DNA of 64,000 bases from NCBI GenBank assembly GCA_965248435.1, contig OZ252100.1, positions 3,360,001 through 3,424,000 of the forward strand. The letters run 5' to 3'. Below, piece after piece: positions 8,908 through 56,308 of this stretch. Under the pieces are notes generated by a model, which was not told the origin of the DNA, did no database searches, and saw only the letters and a list, made by a program, of their open reading frames with translations. The DNA comes from Candidatus Latescibacterota bacterium (GTDB lineage: Bacteria > Latescibacterota > UBA2968 > GCA-2709665). The position numbers and the translations under genes were made by a program. Within the stretch, counting starts at the first letter, position 1. Each line of letters opens with the position of its first letter.

Positions 8908-9633
8908 ATGAAACGTTTGGGCTGTATCTTTGCCGTTGGTTTTCTGTCGATGGCCGCGGGACCGGTGGATCCGGGGGTGGGACACGATGGTCTCATCGAA
9001 CCCTACGAAGTGGTTGAGCTGAGCAGTCAGGTCCCCGGCATTCTTGAGGAGGTGACTGTAGAACGGGGTGGAAGTGTGGAGAAGGGTCAGGTTCTTGTGC
9101 GACTCAAATCTGGTCTGGAAAGGGTCGCGGTCGATCGCGCTCGGGCCCAGCTGGAGTTTTCGAAGCGCCGAGCGGAACGGAACAAGGAGCTGTTCCAGAA
9201 GGAGCTCCTCTCTATCCACGAGCAGGACGAGATGGAGACAGAGATTCAGATCGCCAGGCTGCAGCTGAAGGAGGCCGAGGAGCGGCTCGCCTTGCGGACG
9301 ATCCGGAGCCCGATCCGCGGGGTGGTGGTGGACCGAACCGTGTCACCCGGGGAATACGTGGGTGACCGTCCAATGCTGAAGCTCGCCCAGATCGACCCGC
9401 TTAATGTCGAAGTCATTGTTCCCGTGACGCAGTTTGGATCAATTTTGAAGGGTATGACCGCGGAGGTCCTCCCCGAAGCTCCACTAAGCGGCGCCTACAC
9501 GGCTAAGGTGGTGGTCGTTGATCGAGTGATCGATGCAGCAAGCGGCACGTTCGGCGTGCGTTTGGAACTGCCGAACTCATCCTATCTCTTACCCGCAGGC
9601 CTGAAGTGCAAGGTTCGGTTTTTGAGGGATTAG
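8908..9633 (+). CDS. RND/HlyD-type periplasmic adaptor (membrane fusion protein)
   Basis: ATG 5 nt after the SecA-like stop, signal peptide, lipoyl halves (V.RGGSVEKGQVL, IRSPIRGVV), IDAASGTFGVRLELPN. Confidence 0.88.
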   Translation: MKRLGCIFAVGFLSMAAGPVDPGVGHDGLIEPYEVVELSSQVPGILEEVTVERGGSVEKGQVLVRLKSGLERVAVDRARAQLEFSKRRAERNKELFQKELLSIHEQDEMETEIQIARLQLKEAEERLALRTIRSPIRGVVVDRTVSPGEYVGDRPMLKLAQIDPLNVEVIVPVTQFGSILKGMTAEVLPEAPLSGAYTAKVVVVDRVIDAASGTFGVRLELPNSSYLLPAGLKCKVRFLRD

Positions 9634-9712
9634 TGCTGGAAGTTCGCGACCTCCATGGGCCTCGTAAATATCAGAACCTCAATAAGTTATGAGATATTTG
9701 GCCAGATAACTC

Positions 9713-10111
9713 GTGCGGAAGTTTGGAGTGGGCAACAACGAAGAGAAACTCGTTTTCGTCGCGCAAAAGCACGACGCGACGACGCTTCATTACGACTTCC
9801 GGCTGGAAAGGGACGGCGTGTTGAAGAGTTGGGCCGTCCCGAAGGGCGTGCCGACTAAGGAGAGTGTAAAACGGTTGGCCGTGGAAGTGGAGGATCACGA
9901 TGTAGAGTACGGGGACTTCGAAGGGGAAATTGAAGAGGGGGAGTACGGCGCAGGGAAGGTGGAGATCTGGGACAACGGGCGTTATGAAGCGGAGTCGTGG
10001 AAAGAGGACAAGATCATCTTTGCACTCAATGGGAAACGATTCCAGGGACGCTACTGCCTGGTTCGCTTCAAGAGGGCAGGGGAAAAGAACTGGTTGCTGT
10101 TTCGGCTGTGA
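9713..10111 (+). CDS. Stand-alone LigD 3'-phosphoesterase domain protein
   Basis: FVAQKHDATTLHYDFRLE..GVLKSWAVPKG, RLAVEVEDH, YGAGKVEIWD. Exact start uncertain. Confidence 0.9.
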   Translation: MRKFGVGNNEEKLVFVAQKHDATTLHYDFRLERDGVLKSWAVPKGVPTKESVKRLAVEVEDHDVEYGDFEGEIEEGEYGAGKVEIWDNGRYEAESWKEDKIIFALNGKRFQGRYCLVRFKRAGEKNWLLFRL

Positions 10112-10257
10112 CGATCTGACCTTTATAGCTTGACGGCTAAGCGGATGGCTTTCCGTTGCGTTTTGAGAATTTGCATCTTATTTTTGGTTGATAGGTTATC
10201 TGGACACGCTTTTGAAATAGAGTGTGTCCGGTTTTTTGTTGTGTCGCTGGGAGGACG

Positions 10258-11373
10258 ATGATCACGACACACACCGATGTCGTTGGAAGCCTGCTCCGTC
10301 CGGAGCGGCTGCTGAATGCTCGGGAAGACCTCGCGGCTGAGAGAATCACGGAAACGGACTTCAAGAAGGTCGAAGACCGCGCCGTCGATCATGCCGTCGC
10401 GATTCAGGAGGCGGCGGGACTTGGGGTGGTGACGGACGGAGAGATGCGACGTCAGTCGTTCCAGAGTCAGATGACCGAGGCGGTCGATGGATTTGGAGAA
10501 TACTCGCTGGATGCCTTCTTGTGGGGAGACTGGAAGGGGGATGATTCGGTCGGGGATCTGCACCTGGAGCGCCCGACCGCGCTCGGCGTCGAGCGGAAGT
10601 TGAGAAGGCGTCGCCACCTGAGTGTCCATGAATTCAATTACTTACGGGATCACACGACACGGATCCCGAAGGTCACCTTGCCGAGCCCGAGCCTGTGGGC
10701 GAATTTCTGGTCGCCCGAGCGATCTACGGAGGCCTACTCTTCACTTGACGAATTCCTTTCAGATGTTGCCATCATCCTGCGGGACGAGGTGACGGATCTG
10801 GTGCGTCTCGGGGCTCGGTACATCCAGCTGGATGCGCCACATTATACGCAGTTGATCGACCCGAAGACGCGGGCCTTTTATGAGGCACAGGGGTGGGACC
10901 TGGACCGCTGGGTGAGCGCCGGGATTGAGCTTGACAACGCGGTGATGGGTGACTTTCCTGGTATAACGTTCGGGTTTCACCTGTGACGAGGCAATCAGGG
11001 CAGCCGGTGGCTGCTCGACGGCGGGTACGAGCCGATTGCGGCCAGGATCTTCCAAGGGGTTCGCGCCCAGCGACTTCTGCTTGAATACGATGATGAGCGA
11101 TCGGGTTCCTTCCAGGCACTGAAGGAGGTCCCCGAGGAGAAGATGGTGGTGCTGGGTCTGGTCTCCTCCAAGACGCCGAGGTTGGAGACGCGAGAGGATC
11201 TTGGCGAACGGATCCGGGAAGCCAGTCAGTTCATCTCCTTGGAACGTCTAGCCCTGAGCACGCAGTGCGGCTTCGCGAGCTCTGTCGTGGGCAATCGAAT
11301 CTCAGAAGAAGACCAGAAGCGGAAGCTGGCGCTCGTCACCGAGACGGCGCGGGATGTCTGGAAAGACGCGTAA
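10258..11373 (+). CDS. Cobalamin-independent methionine synthase II (MetE catalytic-domain) family protein, predicted selenoprotein (UGA 10984-10986)
   Basis: GGAGGA RBS; DVVGSLLRP, VTDGEMRR, YIQLDAP, H-L-[TGA]-R-G-N in place of HxCRGN, LLEYD, LSTQCGFASS. ORFs 10222..10986 and 11143..11373 share a frame with no other stop between them. Confidence 0.88.
10998..11016 (+). promoter_or_regulatory. SECIS-like hairpin
   Basis: GGGCAGCC-GGT-GGCTGCTC, 8-bp stem (one G-U) starting 11 nt after the TGA, loop begins with G. Confidence 0.75.
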
Positions 11374-11410
11374 GACATTCGTCATTTGAACCAATCTTTA
11401 GGAGGAGACC

Positions 11411-12376
11411 ATGCTTGTGGGATTGAGGGTTTCGGGTTTTGTGTTCGCCACAATTATGATGGCCTCGTTTGCCCACGCCCAGAAGGAACGACACTTCGCC
11501 TTTACCTATAATGTAGAGATCACTGATCTACCGGAGTCCGCAAAGAAAGTGGAAGTATGGCTGCCGGTCCCGCCGGAGACACCGGAGCAGAAGATCAAAT
11601 CAGTCACTTTTGATTCACCTGTTGTCGGGAAGACGCATACCGAGGCGAGTTACGGGAATCGGATCTGGCACGCGCGAACGACTCCGCCGGTGAATGGCAC
11701 GTTGAGCATCACCCAACGCATCGACGTCGTTCGAAAAGAACAGAGTTTAGACCGGGATAGAAAACTGGCAGGCACAAACGGGTCTATGAATGAGTTTCTC
11801 AAAGAGAATCGCATGGTACCGCTGACTCCACGATTTCGTAAAATTGCTCTGGAGGAGACGAAGGATTCAGAGGCAGTCGTGGATCAGGCTCGCGCGCTGT
11901 ATGATTATGTGATGGGTCAGATGGCCTACGACAAGTCGGGCAAGGGATGGGGACGTGGGGACGCGAACTACGCCTGCGATATCCGAAAGGGCAACTGTAC
12001 GGACTATCACAGTCTGTTTATTGCACTGGAACGTTCGCTGGAGACGCCCGCCAGGTTCTGGATCGGGTTTCCTCTGCCGGAGGAAAGGGGGAAAGGGACG
12101 GTCGGCGGCTATCACTGCTGGGCTGAGTTCTGGGTACCGGACGCTGGCTGGATGCCTGTCGACATTTCAGAGGCGGACAAGCATCCAGAAAAAACGGAAT
12201 ACTTCTTCGGCAATGTGGACGAGAACCGGATTGTCTTCTCCGTCGGCCGAGACCTGACCCTGGAACCTGCGCAGCAGGGGGAGCCGATCAACTTCTTTGT
12301 TTACCCGTATGTCGAAGTGGACGGAAAGCCCTGGGCGCGTGTCGACACGCGCTTTTCCTATCAGGATCTGGATTAG
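11411..12376 (+). CDS. Exported transglutaminase-like domain protein
   Basis: AGGAGGAG RBS, signal peptide ending AHA, catalytic triad motifs GNCTDYH, HCWAEF, WMPVD. Confidence 0.88.
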   Translation: MLVGLRVSGFVFATIMMASFAHAQKERHFAFTYNVEITDLPESAKKVEVWLPVPPETPEQKIKSVTFDSPVVGKTHTEASYGNRIWHARTTPPVNGTLSITQRIDVVRKEQSLDRDRKLAGTNGSMNEFLKENRMVPLTPRFRKIALEETKDSEAVVDQARALYDYVMGQMAYDKSGKGWGRGDANYACDIRKGNCTDYHSLFIALERSLETPARFWIGFPLPEERGKGTVGGYHCWAEFWVPDAGWMPVDISEADKHPEKTEYFFGNVDENRIVFSVGRDLTLEPAQQGEPINFFVYPYVEVDGKPWARVDTRFSYQDLD

Positions 12377-12394
12377 GCAAGAACTGCCAGGAGG

Positions 12395-13690
12395 ATGGCC
12401 GTGGAATCCGCCAAAACACTCGCCGAGTGGGTGAGCGACGCAAGACAGCGGACGATGGATCTGGTGGCCGACCTGACCGACGACCAGCTGATGGGGCCGA
12501 GCCTGGACACCGTCAATCCGCTGCGATGGGAGATCGGGCATATGGCCTGGTTCCAGGAGAAGTGGGTACTGCGGCACGTGGGGAAACAGGCGCCCTACCG
12601 GAAGAACGTGGACGCGCTTTATGATTCGATCGCGATCCCTCACGATGACCGCTGGGACCTGCCGCTCCCGAGCCGGGAAGAAACACTGACCTACATCCGT
12701 GAGGTCCGGGACCAGGTGCTGGAACGGGTTGAGCAGGGTCTGAGTGATAAGGAAGCCTACCACATCCTCTACTCCGTGTTTCACGAAGATATGCACACCG
12801 AGGCGTTTACGTATACCCGGCAAACGCTTGGCTACCCGCCTCCTGAACTGGCTGGTGTGGCTCCAGGCCCATCGGGAGGGGGGCGGCTGGATGGAGATGT
12901 GGAGATTCCTGGAGGAGAGTTTATGCTGGGTGCCGGCCAGGACGAACCGTTCGTGTTCGACAACGAAAAGTGGGCCCATCCGGTTACGCTGAAGCCTTTC
13001 TCGATTGCCCGGGCGCCGGTTACGCAGGCAGAATTCGCTGCGTTCGTCGAGGACAGGGGGTATGACCGGAAGGAGTTGTGGAGAGAGGGAGGTTGGGAGT
13101 GGCGGGAAACGGAAAGGGCGGACCATCCGGTCTACTGGCGAAAGGAGTCAGGCGGCGAGTGGCAGCGCCGTGATTTTGACCGTTGGGTTCCGCTCGAATC
13201 GGATCGACCCGTGATCCACGTCAACTGGTTCGAGGCGGAGGCATATTGCGCGTGGGCAGGTCGACGCCTGCCGACGGAGGCGGAGTGGGAGGCCGCGGCA
13301 GCGTGTGGGCACGACGGAGGAAGCCTATCCAAAAGTAAGCGCCGGTTTCCCTGGGGGGATGAGGGTCCCGAATCGGGGAAGGCCCATCTGGACTGGCGCG
13401 ACATGGGCTGTGCGGAGGTTGGGGCCTATCCAGAAGCGGAAAGTACTTTTGGCTGTCGACAGATGATCGGCAACGTTTGGGAGTGGACGAGCAGTGTATT
13501 TCTGCCTTATCCAGGATTCATTGCGGACCCATACGAGGAGTACTCTGAGCCGTGGTTCGAGACCCGCAAGGTCCTGCGCGGCGGCTCCTGGGCCACACGA
13601 TCCCGCATGCTGCGCAACACCTGGCGAAACTATTTTACGCCGGATAGACGGGATGTGATGGCTGGACTCCGAACGGTCGCAAAGTCGTGA
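12395..13690 (+). CDS. senA: Selenoneine synthase SenA (EgtB-related; DinB_2 + FGE-sulfatase domains)
   Basis: NPLRWEIGHMAWFQE signature, LYDS...HDDRWDLPLP, iron motif HEDMHTE, RLPTEAEWE, GNVWEW, VLRGGSW; stop overlaps the senB start. Confidence 0.88.
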   Translation: MAVESAKTLAEWVSDARQRTMDLVADLTDDQLMGPSLDTVNPLRWEIGHMAWFQEKWVLRHVGKQAPYRKNVDALYDSIAIPHDDRWDLPLPSREETLTYIREVRDQVLERVEQGLSDKEAYHILYSVFHEDMHTEAFTYTRQTLGYPPPELAGVAPGPSGGGRLDGDVEIPGGEFMLGAGQDEPFVFDNEKWAHPVTLKPFSIARAPVTQAEFAAFVEDRGYDRKELWREGGWEWRETERADHPVYWRKESGGEWQRRDFDRWVPLESDRPVIHVNWFEAEAYCAWAGRRLPTEAEWEAAAACGHDGGSLSKSKRRFPWGDEGPESGKAHLDWRDMGCAEVGAYPEAESTFGCRQMIGNVWEWTSSVFLPYPGFIADPYEEYSEPWFETRKVLRGGSWATRSRMLRNTWRNYFTPDRRDVMAGLRTVAKS

Positions 13691-14637
13691 GGATTTCCCT
13701 GATCACACCGGCACCGGCCGGCTCGAGGAAGGGAAATCGGGTGACCGCGCAGCGCTGGTCCAAAATCCTTCGTGGACTGGGGCACCGCGTGGACGTTGCT
13801 CAGGAATATGCGGGGAAGCGGTGCGACCTGATGGTGGCGCTCCACGCGCGGCGCAGCCACGCTTCGATCGCTCGGTTTCAGGAGGATCATCCGGACCTCC
13901 CCGTGGTCGTCGCGTTGACGGGGACGGATCTCTACGGAGATATTCACACGGATTCAGACGCTCAGCGGTCTCTGGACCTGGCATCGCGTCTGGTGATGCT
14001 GCAGCCCGAGGGACTTCGGGAGCTCCCGAAGCGCCACCGGCAGAAGGCGCGCGTCATCTATCAGGCGTTTACGTGACCGCAAGGAGACTTTGCCCCCAGG
14101 AAGGGGGTATTCGAGGTCTGTGTACTGGGTCACCTGAGAGAGGTGAAGGATCCGTTTCGCGCTGCTGAGGCAACCCGCCTGCTACCGGCGGAATCGCGGA
14201 TTGAAGTCCTGCAGGTAGGTGGGGCACTCGATGAAGCGAGTGCGGCGAGGGCGAAAGTGGAGGCGGCTGCCAATTCGAGATACCGGTGGCTGGGGGAGGT
14301 TCCGAGGTGGCGCGCCGTGAGGATCCTGGCTCGCAGCAGGTTGCTCGTAATGAGCTCGATTATGGAAGGGGGCGCGAACGCGGTGTCGGAGGCACTGGCG
14401 TGTCGCGTCCCTGTGCTTTCATCTCGAATCTCAGGCTCCATCGGTCTGCTGGGAAAGGATTATCCAGGCTATTTCAAGGTGGGAGATACGCAGGGGCTGG
14501 CCAGGCTTTTGAGAAAGGTGGAGACGGATTCAGACTTCCACAAAGGGCTTAAGCGTCATTGCCGACGTCTGGTCTCCATTGTGAATCCTGCGGACGAAAG
14601 GAGGAGGTGGAGATCGCTGCTCCAGGAACTGGGATAG
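13687..14637 (+). CDS. senB: Selenosugar synthase SenB (GT-B glycosyltransferase) with in-frame UGA at 14074-14076
   Basis: GNRVTAQRW, VALHARRS, LTGTDLY, VIYQ, GHLREVKDP, SIMEGGANAVSEA. ORFs 13687..14076 and 14143..14637 are the same frame separated only by one TGA. Confidence 0.85.
14085..14119 (+). promoter_or_regulatory. SECIS-like hairpin
   Basis: Upper stem TGCCCCC-AGGAA-GGGGGTA (14091-14109); lower stem AGACTT/AGGTCT with a 4-nt bulge; loop starts 21 nt after the TGA. Confidence 0.55.
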
Positions 14638-14662
14638 CGGTTCGACCGGAGTTGTCTCGATT

Positions 14663-15133
14663 ATGTCTTTGAAGGAAGAGACATTCACGTTCTGGGATCC
14701 GCTTGAATTGGTCGACGGGGATCTTCGCCTCGTTCTGGTCGAAAAGCGATTCGGAAATCCTGCCAGGGATATTGTGCCTGCATACAAGTTCGAAATGAGG
14801 AAGATCGACACCTGGGAACCGATCGGGAGGGTCGATCTCCGAATCGGCAATACGGAGCATATCGTGATGTATTCGGGACACCTCGGCTACCGGGTGGAGC
14901 CACTCTACCGGGGTGAGAGATTCGCGGCAAGAAGCTGCGTGCTCCTGTTCGACCTGGCGAGGCGCCACCAAATCGATCCACTCTGGATCACCTGCAATCC
15001 TGAGAATGTCGCATCGCGTCGGACGTGCGAGCTTATTGGAGGTCGTCTCATCGAAATTGTGGCGCTACCGGAGAATACGGATATGTACAGTGAAGGCGAG
15101 CGCTTCAAATGTCGCTATCGCGTCGATGTATGA
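14663..15133 (+). CDS. GNAT family acetyltransferase
   Basis: GHLGYRVEPLYRGERFA, ITCNPENVASRRTCE. Confidence 0.85.
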   Translation: MSLKEETFTFWDPLELVDGDLRLVLVEKRFGNPARDIVPAYKFEMRKIDTWEPIGRVDLRIGNTEHIVMYSGHLGYRVEPLYRGERFAARSCVLLFDLARRHQIDPLWITCNPENVASRRTCELIGGRLIEIVALPENTDMYSEGERFKCRYRVDV

Positions 15134-15162
15134 GCGATAAAGCGTGTCTGGGAGGCCTAAAG

Positions 15163-15339
15163 ATGGAAGATCAGGAAGTGGTCGTGACCGACGTTCGTAT
15201 GCAGTTCTCGAGTATGGTCGTCTTTATGGTCAAATGGGTTATTGCGTCCATACCCGCGCTGATTATCCTGGCCGCGCTGGGTGCGCTCATCGTGGCTTTC
15301 TTTGCGGCGTTCCTGCGCTCGCTGTTCTGGCCATATTAA
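15163..15339 (+). CDS. Small membrane protein (58 aa)
   Basis: GGAGG RBS; VVVTDVRMQFSSMVVFMVKWVIASIPA followed by a TM helix. Confidence 0.7.
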   Translation: MEDQEVVVTDVRMQFSSMVVFMVKWVIASIPALIILAALGALIVAFFAAFLRSLFWPY

Positions 15340-15516
15340 AGAAGCGTATTTCGTATCTCGTGGCGCTGGATGTTGCGAACATAGATGGCTAGCCACCTCG
15401 CACGGGCAGCAAGCTGCCCGTGGCACACGCAGAGTATTCACAGAAATGATCTTGTGGCACCGGCAGCTCGCTGCCGGTGGGCAATGTTGAGCGTATTTTG
15501 TCCGGCTTGGTGAAGA

Positions 15517-16551
15517 TCAGTCTTCGGAGTGAAGCAGGATTTTGATTCCTTCCTTCTTCCTCACTTTGTTGAAACCTTCTTCCCATCGACTGAGAGGCAG
15601 ACTTTCGGATATGAGCGCATTGAGGTCGATCTGGTCTTTGGCCATGAAGTTCATCACCTGCTTCCACGTCTCCCAGGTATGACATATGGAGCCCTGTATC
15701 CTCGCCTGTTTGTGAACGAGCTGGTCCACGTCAAGGGTGATTGGCTTCCCGAAGAGGCCGACCTGCGTAAACTGACCCAGCTTCTTGAGCAGGTCGAGGC
15801 ATTGTTTCGCTGAGGCCTCTGCGCCCGAACACTCGAAAACGACGTCTGCGCCATAGCCATCGGTCATGTCTTCTATGACCTGTTTCGGGGCCTCCTTTTC
15901 CACGTTGAGCACCAGATCTGCACCCAGCTTCGATGCCAGATCCATTCGTTGGGTGTCTGCGGAAGTTCCGAGCATCACGACGCGACTCTCGCGAGTCTTG
16001 GCGAGCATCGCGCACAGCAGGCCGATCGGACCCGGACCGCTGACAACAACCAGGTCTCCGCGCGTAATCTCCGTGAGCTCCACGACCGCGTGGTAGGCAC
16101 ACGCGAGCGGTTCGCTGAGGCTTCCAGCCTGGTCGTCGACGTTGTCAGGGAGTTTGAATACAACCTCCTTTCGGACGCAGCAGTATTTCGCGAATCCCCC
16201 GTCCAGGACGCTGCCGTGTGAGCCCCGGTCCATGCAAAGAAATGGATACCCCTGTTCACAGTAACGGCATCGGCCGCAGAGTTTTCCTGCTGTCGGATTG
16301 ATGGTGACCCGATCGCCCTCCTCGAGGCCGGCCACACCCGATCCGAGCTCGACAACTCGACCGGCGAGCTCGTGGCCCAGGACGACGGGTGGCTTGCTTG
16401 GAAACTCGTCATCGTAATGATGGATGTCGGTTCCGCAGATGCCGCAAGCACTGACCTCGATGACCACCTGGTCCGCTTCGGGGCGGGGTTCAGGCACATT
16501 CTTGAGCGCCAGTTTTGCGCGACCGGGTTCGGTCTTGACGACTGCTTTCAT
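15517..16551 (-). CDS. Zinc-binding MDR dehydrogenase (sorbitol/threonine dehydrogenase-like)
   Basis: CGICGTD, GHELAG, CGRCRYC..C structural Zn site, GPGPIG. Confidence 0.9.
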   Translation of the reverse strand: MKAVVKTEPGRAKLALKNVPEPRPEADQVVIEVSACGICGTDIHHYDDEFPSKPPVVLGHELAGRVVELGSGVAGLEEGDRVTINPTAGKLCGRCRYCEQGYPFLCMDRGSHGSVLDGGFAKYCCVRKEVVFKLPDNVDDQAGSLSEPLACAYHAVVELTEITRGDLVVVSGPGPIGLLCAMLAKTRESRVVMLGTSADTQRMDLASKLGADLVLNVEKEAPKQVIEDMTDGYGADVVFECSGAEASAKQCLDLLKKLGQFTQVGLFGKPITLDVDQLVHKQARIQGSICHTWETWKQVMNFMAKDQIDLNALISESLPLSRWEEGFNKVRKKEGIKILLHSED

Positions 16552-53007: not shown

Positions 53008-54105
53008 CTACGTGTCACGAAGTAAATCTGCGATCCACTCTATCTGATCTTCCTTCAGTTCGGCGTAGAGCGGCAGGGAAAGAATCTGCGCTACTTGTGA
53101 CTCTGCAACCGGAAGATCTCCCTTCCTGTATCCGAGATGCCTGTAGGCTGTGTGGAGGTGAAGCGGGATCGGGTAGTGGACCTTGGCATCGACGCCCGCC
53201 TTCCTCAAGCGCTGCATCGCAGTGTCCCGGTTCTTGATCCGAACCACATAGTAGGTATAGACGTGGCGGGCGTAAGCGGCCTCGAATGGCGCCTGGACGT
53301 CACTTGCGTCAAATAACGAATTGTATCGCCCCGCGAGCTGTCTCCGCTTTTCGATCCACGCCTCAAGGTGTCGCAGTTTGACGCTCAGGACTGCGGCCTG
53401 AATCCCGTCAAGCCGGTAATTGAATCCCGGCATCTGCTGTTCCCGATTGTCCTCCGTACCGTGATCGCTCAGTATCTTCATTCGCTTCGCGAAATCCGGA
53501 TCTGTAGTGACCACGATCCCCGCATCCCCGTAGGCACCAAGTATTTTTCCAGGATAGAAACTGTAGGTTGCCGCGGTCCCAAAGTGGCCTGCGCGCTTTT
53601 TTTTGTATTCAGCGCCGTGTGCCTGGGCCGCATCTTCAACCACGGGCAGGTCGTGTTCTCGAGCGATTTCGAGGATCGGGTCCATGTCTGCCATGTGCCC
53701 GTAGAGGTGTACAGGCACGATCGCACGTGTCTTCTTTGTGACTGCCGCCCTCACCTTCGATTCATCCAGGTTGTAGGTATCCTCCTCTACATCGACAAAG
53801 ACGGGCCGTGCCCCTGTTTGCGCGATCGTTTCGGCGGTGGCCATGAAGGTGTTGGGCGCGGTGATGACTTCGTCGCCGGGACCGATACTCAGCGCCGCGA
53901 AAGCCAGGTGTAATGCGGTCGTGCCAGAGCTTGCACCCACAGCGTGCGGAAGGCCGCAGTAATCTGCAAAGGCCTCCTCGAATGCGAGCACACGGGGACC
54001 GCGCACAAAACTGTTCTCCCGGATCACATCCTGAATCGCCTGGTTGATCTCGTGCTGGATGGTCTGGTATTGCGCCGTAAGGTCTACGAGCGGAATTTGA
54101 TCCAT
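53008..54105 (-). CDS. DegT/DnrJ/EryC1/StrS aminotransferase
   Basis: SSGTTAL, PVHLYG, EDAAQAHG, SFYPGK. Confidence 0.95.
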   Translation of the reverse strand: MDQIPLVDLTAQYQTIQHEINQAIQDVIRENSFVRGPRVLAFEEAFADYCGLPHAVGASSGTTALHLAFAALSIGPGDEVITAPNTFMATAETIAQTGARPVFVDVEEDTYNLDESKVRAAVTKKTRAIVPVHLYGHMADMDPILEIAREHDLPVVEDAAQAHGAEYKKKRAGHFGTAATYSFYPGKILGAYGDAGIVVTTDPDFAKRMKILSDHGTEDNREQQMPGFNYRLDGIQAAVLSVKLRHLEAWIEKRRQLAGRYNSLFDASDVQAPFEAAYARHVYTYYVVRIKNRDTAMQRLRKAGVDAKVHYPIPLHLHTAYRHLGYRKGDLPVAESQVAQILSLPLYAELKEDQIEWIADLLRDT

Positions 54106-54135
54106 GCGTGCTCGCTCCTCAGGATGCGACCTGGG

Positions 54136-55323
54136 TCAGGTACACGATCTATACTCCTCGACCAACAGGTCTGTGATCCTATCCCAACCGAAGAAATCCT
54201 GAGAGAACCGATAGCCCTCCTCTCCCAATCGTTTCGCTAAACTGTCGTTTGTCAGCACGCGGACGATTGCGTCTGCGAGTGCTTCCGGATCTTTTTGAGG
54301 AACCAGCAGTCCGGTCTCACCATCCTTTATCACATCCGGAATTCCTCCCACGTTCGACCCGATGATCGGCTTTTTGTATGACATCGCCTCTAGAAAGACG
54401 ACCCCGAGCATCTCTGTGTCGCCCCGTGAGTCGACGATCGCCGGAAGCACGAAGACATCGCACTCCTGGTAGCGTTGCGGCAGCTCGTCTGAGGGCACGC
54501 CTCTTTCCATGGTGACGAAGTCGGAAACGCCGGCCTGTTGGATTGCCTCCTTCACGATTTCTTCGCGGTCTCCGCTGCTGTAGACGATCCTCAAATGGGC
54601 ATCGATCCCGCGCGAGCGGACAAGGGGAAGCGCGTTCACGAGGACCTCAGGCCCCTTTCTCTCGATGAGACGGGCAACGAACAGAATCTGTTTCCTGCGG
54701 GAGGGCTGCTTAGGGACCTGGCCGTCGGTCTCGATTTTGAAGGATGAACCGAAAGGGATGATGTTGATGTTGCGGTCGTGGATCGCCTTGGCCTTGGAGG
54801 CCGGAAATGTGGTGATCGCGTCGACGACGTCCGCTTTTTTCATGAAGAATCGAATGAAGGCCCTCGCGGGCGCGAAGCGCTCTGCCAGCATCAGTTCCGC
54901 GCCGTAGAACCGGAGTCCGAACCCGGCCCTTTGCAGTCGGGACCCAACCCAGGCGAACAGGGCGTGAGGAAAAGGCCAGTGGGCCTGAAACAAATCGTAG
55001 CGCCTCGTCGCGCAGAGCCGAATCATGGCCAATGTCCCGAACAGAATGTAGAAAACGGCGAGGAGGGCGTAAAGGGGAGAGCGTCTAATTTTGTTCGGTG
55101 CCCCCTCCTGGTGAGTGAGGATCTCCCATCGCCGGAAGAAGTATCGAAATCTGTGAACCTGAGCCCCCGAGATGGTGTGTGACTTGATCCCCTGGTAGGA
55201 GGGCGCAAAGATTTCCACGACGACCCCGCGTTTGCGAAGGCGCTTGACCGATTCGAGAAGCCAGGGTACTTCCGAATCGCCGTCGAATCGAGGAAACGTT
55301 GAAACCGCGTAACAGACTCTCAT
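54136..55323 (-). CDS. Glycosyltransferase family 4
   Basis: RLIERKG, EMLGVVFLEAM, GGIPDVI. Confidence 0.92.
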   Translation of the reverse strand: MRVCYAVSTFPRFDGDSEVPWLLESVKRLRKRGVVVEIFAPSYQGIKSHTISGAQVHRFRYFFRRWEILTHQEGAPNKIRRSPLYALLAVFYILFGTLAMIRLCATRRYDLFQAHWPFPHALFAWVGSRLQRAGFGLRFYGAELMLAERFAPARAFIRFFMKKADVVDAITTFPASKAKAIHDRNINIIPFGSSFKIETDGQVPKQPSRRKQILFVARLIERKGPEVLVNALPLVRSRGIDAHLRIVYSSGDREEIVKEAIQQAGVSDFVTMERGVPSDELPQRYQECDVFVLPAIVDSRGDTEMLGVVFLEAMSYKKPIIGSNVGGIPDVIKDGETGLLVPQKDPEALADAIVRVLTNDSLAKRLGEEGYRFSQDFFGWDRITDLLVEEYRSCT

Positions 55324-55375
55324 CTGGAGGCTTCGATTGAGGTGGCGCCACCTGGATGGAACGGAAGAAGGGGAG

Positions 55376-56308
55376 TCAGGACAGGATTCTTTTGACGTTG
55401 AAGTTTTCGTGTGCCTTCGAACTCTTTGCGATCATGTCGGCGATCAAACCGGTACAAACGAACTGGACCCCCAGGACGGTGAGCAGTACACCCAGAAAGA
55501 GGAGCGGGTAGCGGTGCTGGACATTTCCGAGGCGGATCCAGAGTGATGCGATGTACGCATTAATGATCGATCCGAAAGTAGCCAAGATGACGCCCACCAT
55601 ACCGAAGAGGTGAAGCGGGCGTCCCATGTAGCGTCCGAGGTACATCACCGTAAGCAGGTCAAGGAAGCCTTTCAAGAGCCGAGTCCATCCGTACTTGGTG
55701 ACTCCGAATTTGCGGCGATGATGCTGAACTTCGAGTTCGGCGATGCGATATCCCTCCAAATGGGCCAGCACCGGAATATACCGGTGGAGCTCTCCATAGA
55801 TCTTTATGTCTTTGACGACCTCAGCCCGGTAGGCCTTCAAGCCGCAGTTGAAATCGTGGATGGGAATCCCGTAGAGGATTCCCGTCACCCAATTGAAGAA
55901 CCGGGAAGGAATGACTTTTCGGAGGGGATCCAGTCGTTTCTTTTTCCAGCCCGACACGAGATCATAACCCTCTTCGATTTTTGCGATTAATGAGGGGATC
56001 TCTGCAGGTTCGTCCTGCAGGTCAGCATCCATCGTGATCACGTATTTTCCGGCTGCGCGCTCGAAAGCCGCCGCGTAGGCCGCGGCTTTGCCGAAGTTGC
56101 GACGGAACTGGATCACCTTCACCTCTGAGTAGGCTTCGTGAAGTTCCTCGAGTACATCCGCAGAACCATCCCTGCTTCCGTCGTCAACGAAGATCACTTC
56201 GTAGGACCGTTCGTAGGCAGCCATGGCGGTCTGAATCTTGTCGTGGAGAGGCCGAAGGCTCTCCTTCTCGTCCAGAAGGGGAATGATAATGGTGATCTCA
56301 ACCGACAT
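55376..56308 (-). CDS. Glycosyltransferase family 2 (polyprenyl-phosphate, ArnC/DPM-like)
   Basis: VDDGSRD, RRNFGK, MDADLQD, two C-terminal TM helices. Confidence 0.92.
   Translation of the reverse strand: MSVEITIIIPLLDEKESLRPLHDKIQTAMAAYERSYEVIFVDDGSRDGSADVLEELHEAYSEVKVIQFRRNFGKAAAYAAAFERAAGKYVITMDADLQDEPAEIPSLIAKIEEGYDLVSGWKKKRLDPLRKVIPSRFFNWVTGILYGIPIHDFNCGLKAYRAEVVKDIKIYGELHRYIPVLAHLEGYRIAELEVQHHRRKFGVTKYGWTRLLKGFLDLLTVMYLGRYMGRPLHLFGMVGVILATFGSIINAYIASLWIRLGNVQHRYPLLFLGVLLTVLGVQFVCTGLIADMIAKSSKAHENFNVKRILS

Follow-up and report, generated by a model that had tools for sequence, protein, structure and literature searches.

We analyzed a 64,000-nucleotide stretch of DNA from a Candidatus Latescibacterota genome (hereafter the window; C1:3360001-3424000 of a 5.67 Mb assembly in 2 contigs, with a completeness of 97.5% and a contamination of 7.0%) and describe a selenoneine synthesis locus at positions 10258-15339, in which 2 genes appear to encode selenoproteins. 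The locus lies on the plus strand and comprises 6 co-oriented open reading frames (ORFs) in the order MetE-like, transglutaminase-like, senA, senB, GNAT, and a small hydrophobic ORF, with intergenic gaps of 37, 18, -4, 25, and 29 nt, the last counted from the ATG of the small ORF at 15163. A preliminary description of this DNA had listed 6 co-oriented genes with gaps of less than 40 nt and had named the first 5 as above, and the ORF coordinates and family scores bear out both the layout and the names. The MetE-like gene (10258..11373), predicted to encode a short zinc alkyltransferase of the MetE family with 371 amino acids, matched Meth_synt_2 (PF01717) with 61.8 bits (cut-off 21). The senA gene (12395..13690), encoding a selenoneine synthase with DinB_2 and FGE-sulfatase domains, scored 519.6 bits with NF041186 (cut-off 420) against 353.8 bits for the EgtB model on the same protein, and was assigned as SenA on both counts. 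The start of senB (13687..14637), the selenosugar synthase gene, overlaps the senA stop by 4 nt, and its product scored 404.8 bits with TIGR04348 (cut-off 300) and matched PDB entries 8jjn and 8fbx with an E-value of about 1e-55. The catalytic Lys is kept (GHLREVKDP opposite GHLRQVKSP, K158), as is the sugar-binding EGGA motif (MEGGANA opposite LEGGAHV), and the protein was assigned as SenB on its score together with these 2 features.

The MetE-like and senB genes each contain 1 in-frame TGA that is followed by a hairpin. In the MetE-like gene, the TGA encoding the predicted selenocysteine (Sec), Sec243, lies at 10984..10986 (plus strand; FHL-U-RGN), in an orthologue codon column that aligns with Cys643 of Escherichia coli MetE. 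Among the relatives, 7 orthologues at 57% identity or more were found, with 3 having TGA, 3 having Cys, and 1 occurring in two pieces. A wider scan with one genome per species returned 462 relatives of the MetE-like protein, and the best 80, which are 63-75% identical, were analyzed; these span Poribacteria, Methylomirabilota, Acidobacteriota, Chloroflexota, Gemmatimonadota, Pseudomonadota, and others, with the genomes outside the phylum all being metagenome-assembled genomes of unstated completeness. The Sec column in these best 80 of the 462 relatives was TGA in 39, TGC in 32, and TGT in 9, with no TAA or TAG. On a quick tree with many weak branches, monophyly of the Sec forms was rejected, with at least 9 changes between Sec and Cys, and the sen-linked Sec forms fell into 2 separate groups.

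Bacterial selenocysteine insertion sequence (SECIS) elements are stem-loops shortly downstream of the UGA with a G in the apical loop, and by sequence and predicted fold both genes have a hairpin 3' of the UGA with a G in the loop. The SECIS-like hairpin of the MetE-like gene (GGGCAGCC-GGU-GGCUGCUC; 10998..11016, plus strand), identified from its fold and from counts of its core motif, begins 11 nt after the TGA, and this spacing and the G/U loop presumably resemble the element of E. coli fdhF. The core CAGCC-GGT-GGYTG was identified in 36 of 40 Sec forms versus 6 of 41 Cys forms, and the Arg codon in the hairpin loop was CGG in 38 of 40 Sec forms versus 11 of 41 Cys forms. These exact-motif and synonymous-codon counts were used in place of fold energy, as hairpin stability was discarded as a SECIS test for this gene (mean minimum free energy of -12.9 kcal/mol for the 40 Sec forms and -13.7 kcal/mol for the 41 Cys forms); it does not discriminate because the conserved peptide GSRWL forces part of the stem.

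The TGA of senB (Sec130; AFT-U-PQG) was located at 14074..14076 on the plus strand. We surveyed SenB in 61 genomes, the window genome and 60 relatives, with stops read through, and identified 12 orthologues at an E-value of 1e-117 or lower. Eight of these contain 1 TGA, all in a single alignment column (FT-U-P), and the remaining 4 have Cys, Ala, Pro, and Ala there. Across the phylum (168 genomes), SenB was identified in 31 genomes, with 1 TGA in 9 of the 31, and 3 SenB genes from genomes of other phyla also have 1 TGA at some position. The SECIS-like hairpin of senB (UGCCCCC-AGGAA-GGGGGUA; 14091..14109, plus strand) was obtained from its own fold and from the consensus fold of the Sec forms; a consensus hairpin occurs within 63 bases from the TGA in 8/8 Sec-form senB genes, the loops contain GG, and 4 of the 7 pairs are compensatory, with both sides changed and the pairing kept. 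The 2 in-frame TGAs with a hairpin behind each had already been pointed out in the preliminary description, and this observation stood, with the TGA column shared by 8/12 SenB and 39/80 MetE-like orthologues.

In the HMMER alignment, Sec130 stands opposite Ser134 of Variovorax SenB, 3 residues past Gln131, which binds the sugar according to the available parts of 2 reports (PMC10891094, PMC11237966). Sec130 falls in the interdomain loop between the 2 domains of this GT-B enzyme, and the available part of a further report describes residues 130-145 as a flexible interdomain loop proposed to order upon UDP-GlcNAc binding (PMC10702425). Orthologues have Ala, Pro, Arg, or Ser at this position, and we therefore infer that Sec130 is dispensable for glycosyl transfer.

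We searched the window genome for the selenocysteine machinery and found selA, selB, selD, and the tRNA-Sec gene (selC) clustered at C1:1062483-1067069, with scores of 568.6 bits for selA, 370.8 bits for selB, and 371.7 bits for selD, so that the presence of all 4 genes, on which the proposal of selenocysteine insertion had been made to depend, is confirmed. The selD gene itself carries 1 in-frame TGA, being a Sec-containing selD, and encodes the sole SelD over the cut-off in the genome (C1:1062705-1063625), inside the sel cluster and 2.3 Mb from the operon. No SelD match was identified at the senA-senB locus that could represent senC, a selD-type gene, and the locus therefore does not form the three-gene senA-senB-senC cassette. 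The egtD gene is located at C1:3140840-3141742, 229 kb upstream of the operon. On sequence evidence, both TGAs (10984 and 14074) very probably encode Sec. The earlier suggestion that the output of the operon depends on selenocysteine insertion is plausible in this genome, but it does not hold in general because the Sec of SenB is replaced by Cys, Ala, Pro, or Arg in orthologues.

We aligned the MetE-like protein to the C-terminal domain of E. coli MetE with hhalign (probability 98.9) to obtain insights into its predicted active site. The profile alignment matched H241, U243, E276, and C337 with the zinc ligands H641, C643 (of the His-x-Cys motif), E665, and C726 of E. coli MetE, and S11, E62, and D192 with S433, E484, and D599, which bind homocysteine, with the roles of all these E. 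coli residues taken from the available part of Price et al. (bioRxiv 10.1101/2020.04.21.054031). In the same part of that source, S433, E484, and D599 are the residues holding the amino-acid part of homocysteine, namely its alpha-amino and carboxylate groups. S11, E62, and D192 are invariant in 6 orthologues. In this alignment, Sec243 is shown to occupy a zinc-ligand position in an otherwise intact predicted site, with an intact homocysteine pocket. The full MetE model (TIGR01371) gave 45.4 bits against a cut-off of 929.95, and the protein of 371 amino acids lacks the N-terminal folate-binding domain of MetE, which has about 750 amino acids in all. Public records label its relatives as "methionine synthase II family". 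By these scores and its domain content, the protein is assigned to the Meth_synt_2 superfamily and is not a canonical MetE.

In several lineages, and in several gene orders, the MetE-like gene accompanies genes for selenoneine synthesis. A sen or egtD gene was present in the flanking sequence retrieved for 26 of the 39 Sec-form loci, whereas no senA, senB, or egtD (or EgtB/SenA-like) gene was identified in the flanks of the 41 Cys-form loci (0/41). The 26 loci include 7 with the order egtD-MetE-like-senA, 1 with MetE-like-senA, 1 with a divergent version of the egtD-senA arrangement, 16 from Poribacteria with the MetE-like gene, a Sec-containing selD, and senB, and 1 with senB-senA 4 kb downstream of the MetE-like gene. 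The order in the window, MetE-like-transglutaminase-senA-senB, is a third sen-linked gene order besides egtD-MetE-like-senA and MetE-like-selD-senB. SenA was over the cut-off in 28 of the 33 Sec-form genomes tested, including all 16 Poribacteria, and of the 13 Sec-form genomes without a sen neighbor at the locus, 9 had SenB. SenB was also found in 11 of 39 Cys-form genomes. Within the phylum (168 genomes), the MetE-like orthologue was identified in 12, and SenB was present in 10 of these 12 versus 21 of the 156 others (Fisher p 6e-7, a value overstated by the non-independence of related genomes). In 3 relatives within the phylum (G060, G180, and G182), a Cys-form gene is found at a distance of 5-6 kb from senB. 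A search for conserved neighbors of the Cys-form loci returned none, with the largest shared cluster covering 4 of 41 loci and giving no hint of a methyl donor. The preliminary description had asked whether the neighborhood is conserved among senAB loci; the part concerning the MetE-like gene stood, as this gene recurs in other lineages, and the remaining genes fared differently, with the GNAT gene and the small ORF found at 0/11 other loci and the transglutaminase-like gene beside senA in 2/6.

Several of these loci have features of their own. The 7 loci with egtD, a Sec-form MetE-like gene, and senA are L078:6936-12757, L102, L113, L115, L093, L076, and L077, and in 4 of the 7 an ABC ATPase gene and an OpuAC-permease gene follow, the permease being of the betaine type. 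SenB was identified in none of the 9 genomes carrying a locus of the egtD-MetE-like-senA type (0/9), although SenA scored 515-535 bits. A Sec-containing SelD was present in 4 of 5 tested genomes of this type. The Poribacteria loci (L080:8001-11564 and 15 more) encode Ala (GCA) at the Sec column of senB, and in each of these genomes senA is found away from the locus. At the G060 locus (L064:3493-13595), the Cys-form MetE-like gene is separated from senA-senB by a divergent ABC transporter whose binding protein is of the phosphonate type (PF12974), a gamma-glutamyltranspeptidase gene follows senB, and a pyridine nucleotide-disulfide oxidoreductase gene precedes the MetE-like gene. The only Cys-form MetE-like locus with a selenium-related neighbor was L125:6043-7041, with a SelD-like gene 1 kb upstream that is 41% identical to the Poribacteria SelD.

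We consider it probable, with moderate confidence, that the locus is a senA-senB selenoneine operon headed by a short MetE-family zinc alkyltransferase acting on a (seleno)homocysteine-type substrate, with 2 of its enzymes being selenoproteins. Selenophosphate would come from the single SelD of the sel cluster, 2.3 Mb away, and hercynine from the EgtD encoded 229 kb upstream. A Zn(His, Sec, Glu, Cys) site in the MetE-like enzyme would activate homocysteine for methyl transfer, with selenohomocysteine being the likelier substrate because of the selenium gene context of the MetE-like gene. Either of these 2 amino acids fits better than selenoneine because the 3 residues that bind the amino-acid part of homocysteine are kept. 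The MetE-like step may thus link seleno-amino-acid handling to selenoneine synthesis, either by supplying selenium from organic selenium or by removing reactive selenohomocysteine. In SenB, Sec130 would sit on a mobile loop closing over the sugar site and probably tethers or protects the nascent, oxidation-prone selenosugar selenol via a Se-Se bond.

A number of observations weigh against this interpretation. The MetE-like protein missed the NCBIfam cut-offs for methionine synthases (PRK06520, 246.9 versus 313; PRK06233, 242 versus 576), and fold energy does not separate the Sec from the Cys forms of its gene (p 0.33). The Sec column of SenB is not conserved (Ala, Pro, Arg, and Ser in Variovorax), which leaves the role of Sec130 a guess. 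The MetE-like orthologue was identified in only 6 of 12 senB-bearing relatives, 13 of the 39 Sec-form loci lack a neighboring sen gene, with 4 of those 13 genomes showing neither SenA nor SenB, and the 16 Poribacteria loci represent one lineage, related genomes not being independent. Further, no SenB was seen in 28 of the 39 genomes that have a Cys-form orthologue, so the MetE-like family also has a sen-independent role.

The last observation is also why a housekeeping reading remains a serious rival, even if we regard it as unlikely. Here, the MetE-like protein would be an ordinary accessory methionine synthase and a selenoprotein by chance, placed near sen genes or egtD through shared selenium-dependent regulation or for the regeneration of methionine and S-adenosylmethionine for the 3 methylations of EgtD, and it would touch no selenium metabolite. 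Every zinc- and homocysteine-binding position is conserved in the protein, the Cys forms in those 28 genomes without SenB are 63-75% identical and have no conserved neighbors, and the gene lies directly after egtD in 7 loci. The window genome fits this reading as well, since no full-length MetE or MetH was found over the family cut-offs, and 7 short MetE-like paralogues are present in addition to MetH-like pieces. The short paralogues outside the window include those at C1 3503866-3504912, 5184808-5185803, 484795-485802, and 4773434-4774411, and a MetH-like B12-binding piece at C1:4721636-4722328 holds 1 in-frame TAG. However, none of the 41 Cys-form loci is near egtD or an EgtB/SenA-like gene, and the link is therefore with selenium clusters rather than with hercynine synthesis at large. 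In the 16 Poribacteria loci, the MetE-like gene is accompanied by selD and senB instead of egtD, and most genomes of the phylum that have the orthologue also have SenB (10/12).

It is doubtful that the operon makes a modified selenoneine, with the MetE-like enzyme methylating the selenol, the GNAT protein acylating selenoneine or the selenosugar, and the membrane protein acting in export. The tight packing of the 6 co-oriented genes and the linkage of the MetE-like gene to sen genes would suit such a pathway, and zinc sites of the MetE fold activate thiols or selenols for alkyl transfer, as established for MetE. Yet the GNAT gene and the small ORF were absent from all 11 other senB loci by tblastn, the Ser, Glu, and Asp for homocysteine are kept whereas selenoneine has a trimethylammonium group and a longer side chain, and Poribacteria pair the MetE-like gene with selD-senB, the early steps, with senA elsewhere. 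The six-gene pathway to a methylated or acylated selenoneine put forward in the preliminary description is thus poorly supported on 2 counts, as the putative tailoring genes are not conserved and the MetE-like protein keeps its homocysteine-binding residues, so that its pocket appears specific for amino acids.

A broader version of the (seleno)homocysteine interpretation is comparably speculative. The Sec-ligated MetE-like enzyme might be a fourth, widespread component of the selenoneine pathway that interconverts selenomethionine and selenohomocysteine, and in the senB-less genomes with egtD-MetE-like-senA the selenium donor for SenA would be selenohomocysteine made by this enzyme, the selenoxide product then eliminating spontaneously to selenoneine. 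If true, selenoneine could be formed without SenB, and the MetE-like protein would be the first known case of a zinc enzyme with selenocysteine as a metal ligand.

The least credible alternative is that one or both TGAs are true stops, marking pseudogenes, split genes with working halves, or assembly errors: gene callers do cut such genes short, 98-100% of the query is covered by every full-length relative listed from the databases, with the named ones annotated as ordinary methionine synthases, and SenB is a two-domain GT-B enzyme with the TGA in its interdomain linker, but the codon is always TGA and never TAA or TAG (39/39 MetE-like, 8/8 SenB) in independent assemblies from several phyla, orthologues have Cys at the same column, the hairpins are conserved, the Sec machinery is complete, and the SenB and MetE-like alignments are conserved on either side of the TGA.

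The transglutaminase-like gene (11411..12376, plus strand) matched Transglut_core (PF01841) with 89.1 bits, and its product has a hydrophobic N-terminal leader (MLVGLRVSGFVFATIMMASFAHA) and is probably exported. Orthologues were identified in 6 of the 168 phylum genomes, with 2 of the 6 (in the window genome and G058) beside senA, and the gene is rarely a sen partner. The GNAT-family acetyltransferase gene (14663..15133, plus strand) matched Acetyltransf_3 (PF13302) with 28.5 bits and, going by the tblastn result, is specific to this locus among those examined. The small hydrophobic ORF (15163..15339, plus strand) encodes 58 amino acids from an ATG behind GGGAGG and matched no Pfam family. An alternative ATG at 15109 would give 76 amino acids and an overlap with the GNAT gene, and the start at 15163 is more likely.

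Upstream of the operon, a terminator-like hairpin of 13 pairs followed by a T-run (TTTTTTGTTG) was identified at 10200..10231 on the plus strand, ending 27 nt ahead of the ATG of the MetE-like gene. It may terminate the upstream LigD_N gene or else serve as a leader or attenuator of the operon, the latter being possible because there is no room for a promoter between the hairpin and the first gene. An Rfam search of 9500-15800 returned no family at an E-value of 1 or lower, and a riboswitch in the leader was rejected on this basis, and a promoter scan was uninformative, with 2 sites versus 1.9 expected by chance.

We also screened the window for further TGA-interrupted genes, as the 2 TGAs had been described as the only internal stops in any recognizable gene of the window. 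The screen yielded 97 TGAs flanked on each side by 60 or more open codons, and 10 read-through frames were searched against Pfam; 7 had no family, and 3 had domains that end before the TGA or are split over 2 adjacent genes. No selenoprotein-like frame was identified among these 10 of the 97 candidates, so that the statement is upheld for the part covered. GC content at third codon positions (GC3) discriminated poorly as a screen. At 53011-55431 (minus strand), genes for a group 1 glycosyltransferase and a DegT-type aminotransferase share a frame with a TGA between them and look like 2 ordinary neighbors.

Selenoneine synthesis has been described as a three-enzyme pathway (SenC, SenB, and SenA) without selenoproteins. 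In several lineages, the pathway appears to be partly built of selenoproteins, including SenB here, SelD in many genomes, and the MetE-like enzyme, and the cell would then spend selenium to make a selenium metabolite, with the output gated by selenocysteine insertion. The MetE-like enzyme may be an overlooked pathway component and a lead on the supply or detoxification of selenium around selenoneine synthesis, and selenocysteine at a zinc site, as predicted here, would be unusual. Standard gene callers cut both genes in two, and such sen loci can therefore be expected to appear as broken in annotations. We found no mention of a Sec-containing SenB or a MetE-type selenoprotein in the available parts of the sen and SenB papers or of 2 selenoproteome reviews (PMC13188914, 2026; PMC9312934, 2022), with supplements and subscription journals lying outside this scope. 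Literature searches of the same scope likewise returned no paper connecting selenoproteins with a MetE-type methionine synthase or with a SenB containing Sec. The single occurrence of "zinc" in the main text of the 2026 review, as available, concerns a Cu/Zn efflux transporter rather than zinc ligation by Sec (PMC13188914).

Compared with the sen cluster of Variovorax paradoxus (senA, senB, and senC; Kayrouz et al., bioRxiv 10.1101/2022.04.13.486033), the window locus is alike in having SenA and SenB above the equivalog cut-offs and senA and senB adjacent and overlapping, and its SenB keeps the Lys of K158, the Asn and Thr of the N20/T23 helix, and the EGGA motif of Variovorax SenB. In contrast, the window locus has no senC, has Sec at the interdomain-loop position that corresponds to Ser134 of Variovorax, and adds the MetE-like selenoprotein and 3 further genes. 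The MetE-like protein consists of the catalytic TIM-barrel domain alone, like the short "core" synthases MesA-D in the available part of the report that compares these with E. coli MetE (bioRxiv 10.1101/2020.04.21.054031), and unlike E. coli MetE it has Sec for Cys643, lacks the folate-binding N-terminal domain, and is genomically linked to selenoneine genes. Its best solved relative is the Listeria "vitamin-B12 independent methionine synthase family protein" (PDB 1ypx; E-value of 1.8e-49 over 365 aligned residues), which shares the motifs HICRGN, LEYDNERSG, and SPQCGFAS, has Cys where the window protein has Sec, and was deposited only as a "putative ... family protein". We take this to be a structural-genomics entry without an assigned substrate. 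Selenocysteine serves as a metal ligand in formate dehydrogenase H (Mo) and in [NiFeSe] hydrogenase, where Sec replaces a Cys ligand and Sec and Cys forms alternate among orthologues. The MetE-like protein differs from both in that its predicted metal is zinc, at a non-redox site for alkyl transfer.

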